Of a stretch of 64,000 bases of DNA, positions 60,372 through 64,000 are shown piece by piece (positions within the stretch are counted from its first letter, which is position 1; every line of letters begins with the position of its first letter). Where the stretch lies: the NCBI RefSeq assembly GCF_001677475.2, contig NZ_CP015229.1; one strand, 5' to 3'. Below the pieces are notes generated by a model that saw nothing but the letters and a program-made list of their open reading frames with translations, made no database searches and had not been told where the DNA came from. The DNA is from Escherichia coli (GTDB taxonomy: Bacteria > Pseudomonadota > Gammaproteobacteria > Enterobacterales > Enterobacteriaceae). Both the position numbers and the translations under genes were made by a program.

Positions 60372-60396
60372 AAATCGGCGGCCGCCTGCGGTTGAT

Positions 60397-60503
60397 TGCC
60401 GGATGCGATGCTGACCGCATCTTATCCGGCCTACAGAACGTTACAATTTATTGAATTTGCAAGGCTTGTAGGCCGGATAAGGCGTTCACGCCGCATCCGG
60501 CAA
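60397..60503. repeat. REP (repetitive extragenic palindrome) pair between convergent aslB and aslA
   Basis: TGCCGGATGCGATGCTGACCGCATCTTATCCGGCCTACA and inverted copy TGTAGGCCGGATAAGGCGTTCACGCCGCATCCGGCA; classic REP consensus. Confidence 0.85.
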
Positions 60504-60537
60504 GGTCAGTGTGGCCCGATGTAGCGATATCGCCGGC

Positions 60538-62193
60538 TTAATCAGATTTAATCTGCGCGCGTGGTGGATATTTTTTCAGGATCTCCATATATGCGTGCAT
60601 TTCGGTCTGTAGCGGTACACCCATCGGAATATGGCGCACGCCGATAGAGTCTCTTTCCTGCGGATCGGTGTACAGGTTAAACACCGACGATCCCGCCGTT
60701 TGCATTACTGTGCCGGTGAACCCACCCTGATACCCGCTCTGGGTATAAGCGTAAGGTTGCTGAATCAGGACGTGATACTTGAACTCATCCATACGCACAG
60801 CAGCGAGTTTACCGTTGAGGAAGTAGTGCTCGGCCTTACGGTTAGACTGACCATTTGTTCCCAGGAAGAAAGAAGCCTGGTCCACACCATCGATAAATGT
60901 GGTTTTCGGCACTAAATTCGCCACTTTCGCTCCAGGATGCCCTGCCAGATCCAGCGCGGTAGGGAAGAGATCTGCCAGATCGACAATACCGTCAGATTTA
61001 CGCGGTTGGATCATGCCTTTCCAGTAAACGAAGGTTGGCACACGAACGCCGCCTTCCCATGTAGAACCTTTCGCACCGCGGAACGGGGTGCGACCGTGCG
61101 GCGGAACTTCGGCTTCCGGACCGTTATCAGAGGTGAACACAATCAGCGTGTTATCAAGCTGACCGTTTTTCTCCAGTGCTTTATACAGATTGGCGAAGAT
61201 TTCGTTCATCTCCACCATGCAGTCGCCGTAAGAGGTGCGCGCCGGAGAGCTACCCGCATATTTCGCATTTGGGTAGTTATCGAAGTGACAGCCGCGAGTG
61301 CCGTAGTAGAGGAAGAAAGGCTTATCGCTCTTCGCCATCTTGTCGAGGAACTTAACGCCATATTCCATCCAGCGTTGATCCAGGTCTTCCATATATTTCG
61401 GCGTAATGTCGGCAATGGCCTCCTGTTCACCGCCGCGCACGGCATGAACGTCATCTTTGCTGAATGGCAGTTTTTGGATGTATTCAGAACGATCCGGGCT
61501 CAGGGCGACTTCCGGGTTGACATGAACATCACGCCATTCGGTATACATATCGGACACCGAGTTAAAGCCGCGGAAATCATCAAAGCCAACGTTCTGCGGC
61601 TGCGACTCTTTGTTTTCCCCCATATGCCATTTCCCGATGGCCTGGGTGACGTAACCCTGATCGTGCAGCAGTTGCGGCAGCGTGGTTAACCCTTGCAGCC
61701 CGCCCGGTTGCCCGTACATTGGCGGCATCAGAATGCCGTGGTGGATGGAGTATTGTCCGGTGAGAATGGTGGCGCGGGTTGGGGAAGAGCTTGGTTGAGA
61801 ATACGCCGAAGTTAAAATCAGCCCCTGGCTGGCAACGGCGTCGATATCTGGTGTAGGGTTACCCACTGCCACGCCGCCGCCGTTAAAGCCGACGTCCATC
61901 CAGCCCACATCATCCAGCAGGAAGATAACCACATTGGGCTTCTTACCGGTTTTTTTCTCAAGTTCTGCCAGCTTGTGCTGGGTTTCTTTATCCTGCGCCG
62001 GATGCTGCATTACTGGCATCATGTTGTCGGCAATAGTGGTCGCCGGTTTAACCAGATACTGGTTTGGGTGATCGTATCCGGAAAAGCCTTTGCGTGCGGT
62101 GGCAGTTGACGGGGTATCTGCTGCGCTGGCCATGAGAGGAAGAGCGGCGGCGACAGCAACAACAAGAAGTTTGGGTGAAAACGAAAATTCCAT
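60538..62193 (-). CDS. aslA: Arylsulfatase-like protein AslA (secreted; signal peptide)
   Basis: 551-aa [31 protein letters not shown], sulfatase motifs ([19 protein letters not shown] region). Confidence 0.93.
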
Positions 62194-62617
62194 GCAAAAT
62201 GCTCCGGTTTCATGTCATCAAAATGATGACGTAATTAAGCATTGATAATTGAGATCCCTCTCCCTGACAGGATGATTACATAAATAATAGTGACAAAAAT
62301 AAATTATTTATTTATCCAGAAAATGCATTGGAAAATCAGGAGAGCGTTTTCAATCCTACCTCTGGCGCAGTTGATATGTAAGGCAGGTTTATTATATCGC
62401 GTTGATTATTGATGCTGTTTTTAGTTTTAACGGCAATTAATATATGTGTTATTAATTGAATAAATTTTATCATTCATAATAAGTATGTGTAGAATCAAGC
62501 TCAGGGTAAATATTCACTCAGGAAGTTATTACTCAGGAAGCAAAGAGGATTACAGAATTATCTCATAACAAGTGTTAAGGGATGTTATTTCCCGATTCTC
62601 TGTGGCATAATAAACGA

Positions 62618-62824
62618 GTAGATGCTCATTCCATCTCTTATGTTCGCCTTAGTGCCTCATAAACTCCGGAATGACGCAGAGCCGTTTACGGTGCTTATCG
62701 TCCACTGACAGATGTCGCTTATGCCTCATCAGACACCATGGACACAACGTTGAGTGAAGCACCCACTTGTTGTCATACAGACCTGTTTTAACGCCTGCTC
62801 CGTAATAAGAGCAGGCGTTTTTTT
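62618..62824 (+). ncRNA. glmZ: Small RNA GlmZ (RyiA/SraJ), post-transcriptional activator of glmS
   Basis: GTAGATGCTCATTCCATCTCTTATGTTCGCCTTAGTGCC ... ACGCCTGCTCCGTAATAAGAGCAGGCGTTTTTTT matches GlmZ as recalled, with terminal intrinsic terminator; -10-like CATAAT just upstream. Confidence 0.85.
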
Positions 62825-62871
62825 ATGTATCAGAAAGGTCCCGGAGGTGCTTGCCTCCGGGTGAGAAAGAA

Positions 62872-64000
62872 CTACTGTGGCGGGTTGTTCTGCAACGTTA
62901 ACATCAAACCGTCGCGGCGCATCGCTGCAGCTTCTTCTGGTTTGTGCAGTCTGTCCAGCGCGTCGGCAAGCCATGCGTAATCGTAGGCGTCCGGACGTTG
63001 TTTCAGCGCTGCGCGGAAGGCGAGCGATGCTTCCTGCCATTCTCCGTGCTTCATCAGCGACTGACCCAGTGTGCTCCACAACAGCGGGCGATCGCCGACG
63101 TTTTTGATCTGTTGGCGCAGCACTTTTTCCAGCTGTTCCGGGTTATTGGTTTTCAGACGCGGGATCGGCAGCAGTAGGCGATCGTCATACTGGCGTTTCA
63201 GGCCGTCGATGATAATTTGCTGGGCAGTATCATGATCGTCACATTCAATAAGATGTTCCGCCATTGCCACCTGCAACGCTACCTGATGACGCGTTTTCCG
63301 GCTTTGGTTTTTCCACCAGTTACGCAAACCTTCGCTACCGTTATCGGCACGAGCCTGATCCATCAGGCCAATCCATGCCTGTTGTTCCAGCATTGCACGA
63401 TGTTCTTCATCACCAACATGGGCTTTCGCCATTGATGGGATGATATCCAGCAGCGAACTCCATGCCCCTGTGCGGATATACGCCTGTTCCGCCAGACGTA
63501 ATACTTCCGGATGGCGTGGCGTAACTTCCAGCAGCTTATCCACGCCGTGGCGTGCAGCGTGGTTTTCATTACGGGCCAGTTGCAGACGTACACGGGTGAT
63601 TTCTACCGGAATGGTGTCATTACCGGCCAGCTCCGCTGCGCGTTCCAGATGTTGGTTGGCGCGTGCTTCATCACCACGTTGTTGCGCGGCTTCGGCAGCC
63701 AGTAGATAGTTCACCACCGGTTGTTCAGCGTGATCGGCATTTTTCGCCATCAGCTTTTCAACTTGCTGATAATCGCCTTCCGCCAGTTTCAGCAGCGCCT
63801 GTTCGGTCTGCTTACGGGCACGGCGACGCTTACGTCCGACAAACCACCCACGGGTGTGCGCGCCAGTGCGGAAGATCCGCCGCAGTAGCCACTCAATGGC
63901 AAACAGCACTACCATCGCCAGAATCAAAATAATCGCCAGGCCCGTGACGCTGGTTTCGATATTGTAGTTGTCGGTCTGGATCAGCACATAACCCTGATGA
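62872..64000 (-). CDS. hemY: HemY protein (TPR-containing inner membrane protein), 3' portion; N-terminus lies beyond window end
   Basis: ORF runs to the window edge on the minus strand; sequence ...GHQGYVLIQTDNYNIETSVTGLAIILILAMVVLF... to C-terminal LTLQNNPPQ; about 27 N-terminal codons missing. Confidence 0.9.
   Translation of the reverse strand, partial: HQGYVLIQTDNYNIETSVTGLAIILILAMVVLFAIEWLLRRIFRTGAHTRGWFVGRKRRRARKQTEQALLKLAEGDYQQVEKLMAKNADHAEQPVVNYLLAAEAAQQRGDEARANQHLERAAELAGNDTIPVEITRVRLQLARNENHAARHGVDKLLEVTPRHPEVLRLAEQAYIRTGAWSSLLDIIPSMAKAHVGDEEHRAMLEQQAWIGLMDQARADNGSEGLRNWWKNQSRKTRHQVALQVAMAEHLIECDDHDTAQQIIIDGLKRQYDDRLLLPIPRLKTNNPEQLEKVLRQQIKNVGDRPLLWSTLGQSLMKHGEWQEASLAFRAALKQRPDAYDYAWLADALDRLHKPEEAAAMRRDGLMLTLQNNPPQ

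Follow-up and report, generated by a model that had tools for sequence, protein, structure and literature searches.

An Escherichia coli-specific tandem duplication probably underlies the CTCAGG motifs between aslA and glmZ

Introduction

In Yersinia, Salmonella, Enterobacter and other genera, glmY and glmZ have promoters of the GlrR (QseF)/sigma-54/IHF type, with three sites located upstream, at about -100 to -250. These GlrR-dependent promoters are characterized by TGTC-N10-GACA palindromes combined with a TGGCAC-N5-TGCA promoter. Because three GlrR sites are found upstream elsewhere, an array of three motifs beside glmZ looks suggestive.

The glmZ promoter at the locus considered here was analysed in detail by Göpel et al. 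(2011; NAR 39:1294; PMC3045617), who studied the spacer between aslA and glmZ as a -424..+32 fragment and found a constitutive sigma-70 promoter. In that work, 5' truncation to -40 left glmZ'-lacZ activity intact and truncation to -20 abolished expression; the -35, which agrees with the consensus at three positions, is located between these two points, and mutation of either the -35 or the -10 abolished expression. The -424..+32 fragment was not shifted by GlrR in an electrophoretic mobility shift assay (EMSA), and deletions of glrR and rpoN were without effect.

The other described systems that bear on this locus are H-NS-bound, AT-rich divergent promoter regions and the short tandem duplications and slipped-strand indels of bacterial intergenic DNA. 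An earlier note had drawn attention to three spaced CTCAGG motifs in the spacer and had read them as an array of binding sites, or the region as an H-NS-silenced promoter region, for the divergent aslA and glmZ transcripts. Here, we compare the spacer with these systems and with its counterparts in other genomes.

Results

The spacer between aslA and glmZ

The analysis covered a 64-kb stretch of E. coli DNA (the window), the right end of which is the aslA-glmZ-hemY region. The aslA (arylsulfatase) coding sequence lies on the minus strand at 60538 to 62193 as a 551-amino-acid open reading frame (ORF), and its K-12 counterpart is annotated as arylsulfatase AslA in RefSeq. The start codon (62193) forms the left bound of a 424-bp spacer (62194 to 62617), which falls at roughly 3,986,008-3,986,431 in U00096.3. 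On the far side of the spacer, the glmZ small RNA occupies 62618 to 62824 on the plus strand, with its +1 at 62618, and was matched at full length by Rfam family RF00083 (218.4 bits). A terminator scan located the glmZ intrinsic terminator at 62790-62824 on the same strand, and hemY follows on the minus strand.

The spacer had been described as strongly AT-rich, and computation bore this out: its GC content is 32.5%, compared with 52% for the window. It holds the lowest-GC 200 bp of the window, a core at 62281-62480 with 27.5% GC. Within the spacer, AT-richness is lowest in the stretch that carries the CTCAGG motifs (39% GC). The spacer is present as a single copy in 5,425 of the 5,426 complete E. 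coli genomes that made up the comparison set. BLAST found no second genomic copy of the segment in E. coli genomes, a result that says nothing on a regulon, as 10-mers are below BLAST detection.

Three CTCAGG motifs and a period-15 tandem repeat

Inspection of the plus strand confirmed three CTCAGG motifs in the spacer, here called copies 1, 2 and 3, at 62500-62505, 62517-62522 and 62532-62537, with start-to-start distances of 17 and 15 bp. Relative to the glmZ +1 they lie at -118, -101 and -86, approximately 45 bp upstream of the promoter core. Copy 1 is an isolated hexamer. Copies 2 and 3 do sit, as had been reported, inside an exact 10-mer, ACTCAGGAAG, at 62516-62525 and 62531-62540.

Analysis with TRF revealed that copies 2 and 3 are borne by a tandem repeat with a period of 15 at 62511-62540, comprising 1.9 units (TATTCACTCAGGAAG / TTATTACTCAGGAAG; score 53, 93% matches). 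The units are arranged head to tail, and there are only two of them. One unit, ACTCAGGAAGTTATT, spans 62516-62530 on the plus strand, and 176 of the E. coli genomes lack exactly these 15 bp (see below). The 10-mer pair is a genuine tandem duplication and not noise, since the period-15 call by TRF is matched by an indel polymorphism of unit length in E. coli. We obtained no evidence for expansion past two units or for a phase-variable phenotype.

The array is restricted to E. coli

A glmZ-pattern scan of one genome per GTDB species returned 120 loci. Three other Escherichia genomes with the aslA-glmZ arrangement were compared, namely, E. albertii and two genomes (L062 and L076) that are filed as E. 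coli yet represent other species in the GTDB-based collection. All three align with E. coli across the whole spacer and show no length difference at the array. E. albertii and L062 have the middle CTCAGG only, and L076 has none; copies 1 and 3 are absent from all three genomes. The E. coli sequence ATTACTCAGGAAGC corresponds to ATTGTGTGTGAAGG, ATTGCGAGCGAGAG and ATTGCAAGTGCATG in E. albertii and the other two Escherichia genomes, and searches of the E. coli collection for these outgroup alleles gave zero matches. The repeat structure is therefore a feature of E. coli within this comparison.

Further inspection of the alignment revealed that the motifs fall in the least conserved part of the spacer. 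Between 62478 and 62548, 17 to 43% of columns are invariant (30-nt windows), compared with 53 to 87% elsewhere. Pairwise identity over the same interval is 55 to 57%, against 74 to 81% for the spacer and 99% for glmZ.

Variation within E. coli

The 40-nt segment with copies 2 and 3 is identical in 4,955 of the 5,426 E. coli genomes, carries one mismatch in 284 and carries more in 5. The two-unit segment is thus intact in 5,244 genomes and, together with the 176 one-unit genomes, gives 5,420 with any match. The 176 genomes have lost exactly 15 bp, that is, one ACTCAGGAAGTTATT unit. In 166 of them (e.g., 23CRST013 and M25631H) the deletion is on a B2-like flank, and these strains are left with a single CTCAGG. 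The other ten have three mismatches to the B2-like junction, and one of them, SC516, was confirmed to have a K-12-like flank. The unit-length indel therefore occurs on two haplotypes. Such a pattern bears the signature of slipped-strand loss and would reflect either recurrent slippage or dissemination through recombination. The same genomes show that natural strains tolerate a single repeat unit.

Copy 1 is polymorphic in the species: K-12-like haplotypes have CTCAGG at this position and B2-like ones have CGCAGG. Assigned by identity band, approximately 3,557 genomes have CTCAGG and approximately 1,776 (about a third) have CGCAGG. Copy 2 is changed to ACTCAGAAAT in one enterotoxigenic E. coli (ETEC) isolate. 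In strain PSS-16, an IS1-associated deletion extends from inside aslA to window position 62567, and glmZ is kept with 50 bp of upstream sequence (-50). As far as these genomes indicate, there is no sign of constraint on the array beyond recent common ancestry. The near-fixation of the two-unit form would, however, be expected under weak selection for two sites as well.

The motifs lie outside the glmZ promoter

The locus is the one studied by Göpel et al. (PMC3045617), and the same promoter elements are found here within -40..+1. We place a putative glmZ -35 hexamer, ATGTTA, at 62582-62587 (plus strand; 3 of 6 matches to TTGACA, 18-bp spacer), and an extended -10, TGgCATAAT, is present at 62603-62611 on the same strand and is conserved in the four Escherichia genomes. 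The CTCAGG stretch (-118 to -81) was thus shown by the published truncations to be wholly in the part that is dispensable for glmZ. The repeats play no part in glmZ transcription, which starts from the constitutive sigma-70 promoter at -36 to -7. PMC3045617 does not mention the CTCAGG repeats, and the dispensability reported there holds for glmZ as measured with a plasmid-borne reporter in the conditions of that study. These data argue against a binding-site array serving glmZ: the promoter needs nothing above -40, and GlrR does not bind -424..+32 (PMC3045617).

The GlrR-dependent promoters of other genera differ from the Escherichia spacer in that the latter is without their elements. Strict TGTC-N10-GACA palindromes lie upstream of glmZ in most of the other loci of the 120-locus scan, covering the majority of genera, and none was found in 62194-62617 with either the strict or a relaxed pattern. 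The TGGCAC-N5-TGCA element is present in the aligned Salmonella, Citrobacter and Enterobacter loci, and the Escherichia genomes have TGTGGCATAATA instead. Searches of the spacer for the sigma-54 -24/-12 element TGGCAC-N5-TTGCA, and of both of its strands for the IHF consensus WATCAR-N4-TTR, were negative. Homology of the Escherichia glmZ locus with other genera ends at about -12. A remnant of a GlrR/sigma-54/IHF architecture is ruled out by the lack of consensus elements, by this end of homology and by the negative results of PMC3045617. An aslA-like gene also adjoins glmZ in Kluyvera and Pseudocitrobacter, and their AT-rich spacers are unalignable and have no CTCAGG repeats.

The motifs as sites for control of aslA

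The adjacent gene, aslA, is implicated in invasion by K1 strains. The divergent aslA promoter might be controlled by some nucleoid protein or transcription factor for which the direct repeats would be E. coli-specific sites, a reading that we regard as unlikely. A consensus scan predicted a leftward, extended -10 promoter-like site on the minus strand at 62493-62464 (TCTACA-18-TAAAAT with a TG extension; a prediction only), and the motifs would be at about -45, -62 and -77 of this promoter if it starts near 62457. Such a role is also in keeping with the near-fixation of the two-unit allele in E. coli and with the clustered changes by which copy 3 apparently arose as an exact replica of copy 2. 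Moreover, the regulation of aslA is essentially uncharacterised in the literature searched, in which we found only indirect RpoE effects in K1 strains and an in vitro signal for the CFT073 aslA homologue that was greater with sigma-S than with sigma-70.

Several observations argue against sites for aslA and also against the array of binding sites that the earlier note had envisaged. The distances of 17 and 15 bp are not multiples of approximately 10.5 bp, so that the motifs are out of helical register: successive copies are placed on opposite faces of the helix and not on one face. About a third of strains are without copy 1, having CGCAGG in its place. One unit is gone in 176 genomes, on two haplotypes. 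The sites are not conserved in the orthologous promoters of E. albertii, L062 and L076, which share the aslA-glmZ arrangement but are missing the array. Finally, the only other exact ACTCAGGAAG in the window falls inside a 443-codon ORF, read as rho from its sequence. We know of no E. coli motif that matches the repeats; among the motifs of CpxR, CreB, NarL, RcsAB, TyrR, ArcA, PhoB, OmpR and Fis, none, to our knowledge, fits them. What we take to be a loose Fis-like site, G-N13-C with an AT core, is present at 62505-62519, between copies 1 and 2. The repeats probably have no role in aslA expression.

H-NS and the composition of the spacer

The spacer resembles H-NS-bound, AT-rich divergent promoter regions in its GC content (27.5 to 32.5%, versus 52% for the window), in two matches to the high-affinity nucleation motif TCGATAAATT and in one 'HNS' mark in a published table. 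The two matches (8 of 10 positions each) are at 62457 on the plus strand and 62318 on the minus strand, neither of them in the CTCAGG stretch, and correspond to a density of 4.7 per kb in the spacer versus 1.2 per kb in the whole window. In the older K-12 numbering, the glmZ start is presumably the base that follows coordinate 3984454. An RNA-polymerase SELEX peak for the spacer was listed at this coordinate by Shimada et al. (2014; PMC3946193). Main Table 1 of PMC3946193 marks the spacer 'HNS' (aslA<HNS>glmZ), and the same row is unmarked in supplementary Table S2.

The locus departs from H-NS-bound divergent regions in three respects: expression of glmZ is constitutive, the CTCAGG motifs occupy the part of the spacer with the lowest AT content, and the 'HNS' mark is inconsistent. 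Of the proposed H-NS-silenced promoter region for aslA and glmZ, then, the AT-richness is real, but glmZ is not silenced, its promoter being a constitutive sigma-70 promoter (PMC3045617). The composition of the spacer makes H-NS occupancy plausible on the aslA side, with the tables of PMC3946193 in conflict, and the spacer as a whole may be an H-NS-type silenced region for aslA. Nothing ties H-NS to the CTCAGG motifs.

Expectation by chance

CTCAGG is not enriched in the 64-kb window (24 occurrences found, 23 expected). A non-trivial hexamer occurs three times within 40 bp in six cases in the window, compared with 2.2 +/- 1.5 in Markov-1 shuffles, and there are two cases of a 10-mer directly and exactly repeated within 20 bp, with approximately one expected. 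The joint pattern, in which two of the three hexamers belong to a 10-nt match, arises somewhere in 8% of shuffled 64-kb sequences. On these shuffle frequencies, the CTCAGG triplet alone is unremarkable and is not beyond chance for a scan of 64 kb.

These figures, with about two such clusters expected per 64 kb, leave some room for pure coincidence, in which the hexamers and the 10-mer pair would have come from independent point mutations in low-complexity, AT-rich DNA. We nevertheless hold this to be decidedly unlikely. The 10-mer pair is scored as a tandem repeat by TRF, approximately six clustered changes relative to the outgroups recreate the neighbouring 10-mer exactly, and the unit-length indel means that the pair behaves as a repeat.

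RNA and small-protein readings

The repeats could act as RNA, either on the plus strand as CsrB-like CsrA-binding repeats or on the minus strand as the start of a long aslA leader, but we consider this very improbable. The former likeness is to the CsrA-binding repeat consensus of CsrB: the plus strand has CAGGAAG twice, and CAGGG, AGAGGA and AAGGGA bring further GGA motifs, with five GGA motifs in approximately 90 nt. A promoter-like TTATCA-17-TAGAAT is also present on this strand at 62467-62495. The leader would originate at a predicted leftward promoter, TTAACA-18-TGTAAT, the hexamers of which are given for aslA in Table 1 of PMC3946193 and which we located at 62549-62578 on the minus strand (-35 at 62578-62573, -10 at 62554-62549). 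If used, this promoter, which is a prediction only, would run through the repeats toward aslA.

Against these possibilities, glmZ'-lacZ was unreduced when sequence above -40 was missing (PMC3045617), and therefore no appreciable plus-strand transcription enters glmZ from upstream. CsrB, CsrC or any other RNA family was absent from the spacer in an Rfam search (E <= 1), the sole match at the locus being glmZ. Predicted folds were no better than those of shuffles (z -0.3 to -1.3), and these scores together with the Rfam result argue against a structured RNA on both strands. Neither the stretch itself, across the genus, nor the -10 of TTAACA-18-TGTAAT, in the other Escherichia genomes, is conserved.

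It is extremely unlikely that the repeats encode part of a small protein of 27 residues: a 27-codon ORF (MCRIKLRVNIHSGSYYSGSKEDYRIIS; 62485 to 62568, plus strand) does span the array with the 10-mers in frame (HSGS, YSGS), has a period divisible by three, such that the indel is an in-frame change of five codons, and is intact in 9 of 9 E. coli sequences examined, but its ATG at 62485 has no Shine-Dalgarno sequence and lies upstream of the predicted plus-strand start, variation in E. coli is mostly non-synonymous (KLRV, KLRL or VRRR; GS to EI; K to Q), and the ORF is truncated or in another frame in E. albertii, L062 and L076. It is unannotated under the match in every listed RefSeq genome, and an exact look-up in a collection of 15 billion proteins was empty, which is weak evidence, since ORFs of fewer than 30 codons are rarely called. 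The ORF was rejected as a small protein, having no Shine-Dalgarno sequence and no conservation in other Escherichia, and was judged to be a non-gene.

Discussion

We consider it probable that the array is a mutational by-product, namely, a 15-bp tandem duplication found only in E. coli and accompanied by a single stray hexamer, both lying in an AT-rich spacer that evolves fast. The locus resembles the short tandem duplications and slipped-strand indels of bacterial intergenic DNA in its head-to-tail units, its exact 10-nt repeats, the deletion of one unit on more than one haplotype and the restriction to a single lineage. It differs from them in that just two units are present here.

The comparison with the outgroups is consistent with the following order of events. 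Copy 2 would be the older element. Copy 3 would have been created on the E. coli lineage by approximately six changes within a stretch of 11 nt, counted against all three outgroups and leaving the length as it was. Its simplest explanation is templated, for instance conversion or a local template switch between TATT...GAAG microhomologies. The cluster of changes in copy 3 fits templated conversion, and selection for a second site could also explain it. The imperfect two-unit duplication at 62511-62540 would thus have arisen, or been homogenised, in E. coli within the least constrained stretch of the spacer. Because of the two exact 10-mers, the site is expected to be prone to slippage, and slipped-strand mispairing between these sequences, 15 bp apart, may then have led to the repeated loss of one unit. 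Copy 1 (62500), which only some strains of the species possess, would be a chance hexamer. We infer that slippage or templated conversion generated the array.

The finding is of little importance in itself, as the locus is well characterised and the repeat segment was already known to be dispensable for glmZ. It serves as a caution that a tidy motif array beside the promoter of a small RNA can be a lineage-specific product of slippage. There is a slim chance that the two ACTCAGGAAG units are instead a recent, E. coli-specific cis-element for aslA, in which case the recurrent gain and loss of 15 bp would act as a natural on/off or dosage switch. The two-unit alleles, the one-unit alleles (176 genomes), the alleles without copy 1 and the IS1-associated deletion of the spacer are natural controls for aslA regulation.

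Allelic variation and IS1 activity in the aslA-glmZ spacer

Within E. coli, window positions 62470 to 62508 exist as two deeply divergent haplotypes, K-12-like and B2-like, which differ from each other at approximately 10 to 12 of about 40 nt, a divergence far above that of the flanking spacer. The two haplotypes show another group of clustered differences at approximately 62386 to 62392. The allele carried by the window is rare: it differs from that of K-12 at 5 of the 601 positions between 62100 and 62700, and among the 5,426 complete genomes compared, an exact match to the 96 nt around the three CTCAGG repeats was found only in strain GF4-3.

The spacer is also a site of IS1 activity, as observed in strains XJW9B277 and PSS-16. 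In XJW9B277, an IS1B element is inserted at window position ~62267 to 62279, approximately 230 bp to the left of the repeats. PSS-16 carries an IS1A-associated deletion (window 61264 to 62567) that has removed the 5' part of aslA along with the spacer, of which the last 50 bp are kept.

The glmZ-proximal block and published promoter assignments

The block at 62549 to 62600 (-70 to -18 relative to the glmZ start) is well conserved across four Escherichia genomes. It contains a direct repeat, TGTTA-N5-TGTTA (62573 to 62587), which overlaps the inferred -35 element. This repeat is loosely similar to ArcA-type repeats, with a spacing of 10 bp rather than 11 bp. Despite the conservation of the -70 to -18 block, the sequence upstream of -40 is reported to be dispensable for glmZ (PMC3045617). 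The "best" rightward glmZ promoter listed in PMC3946193, TTGAGA-17-GATGAT (window 62249 to 62277), differs from the experimentally defined glmZ promoter. The same study marks an H-NS site in the aslA/glmZ spacer in its Table 1 but leaves it unmarked in supplementary Table S2.

In a group of Citrobacter genomes, exact GlrR sites were absent upstream of glmZ. Instead, a sequence resembling a tRNA T-arm, GGTTCGAATCC, and, after it, a terminator-like hairpin are present just upstream of glmZ in this group, the two lying approximately 60 to 200 nt upstream in Citrobacter werkmanii and similar Citrobacter loci.

Neighboring sequence features and aslA pseudogenes

Some E. coli strains, namely, M25631H and AF14, contain an insertion of approximately 640 bp between the glmZ terminator and hemY (window 62827 to 62873; positions 1803 to 2438 of the M25631H locus and from position 1029 of the AF14 locus). 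It encodes a "hypothetical protein." Integration may be targeted to the 3' end of the glmZ sRNA gene.

For naRNA4 (RF02564), a REP-derived family, several matches were detected on both strands at 60376 to 60538, in the interval separating aslB from the aslA stop codon. They scored 24 to 40 bits, below the gathering score of 59.5, and look like REP/BIME elements. A further hexamer triplet, GTGATT/TGATTA, occurs as three copies in 40 bp (26659 to 26695). It borders the stretch that ranks second in AT content within the window (26461 to 26660; 30.5% GC).

In several strains, aslA is a pseudogene: it is frameshifted in AF14, and in RM13745 and SMN013SH2 it is reduced to a 138-bp 5' remnant adjoining aslB. 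The presence of these pseudogenes suggests that constraint on aslA is weak in some parts of the species.
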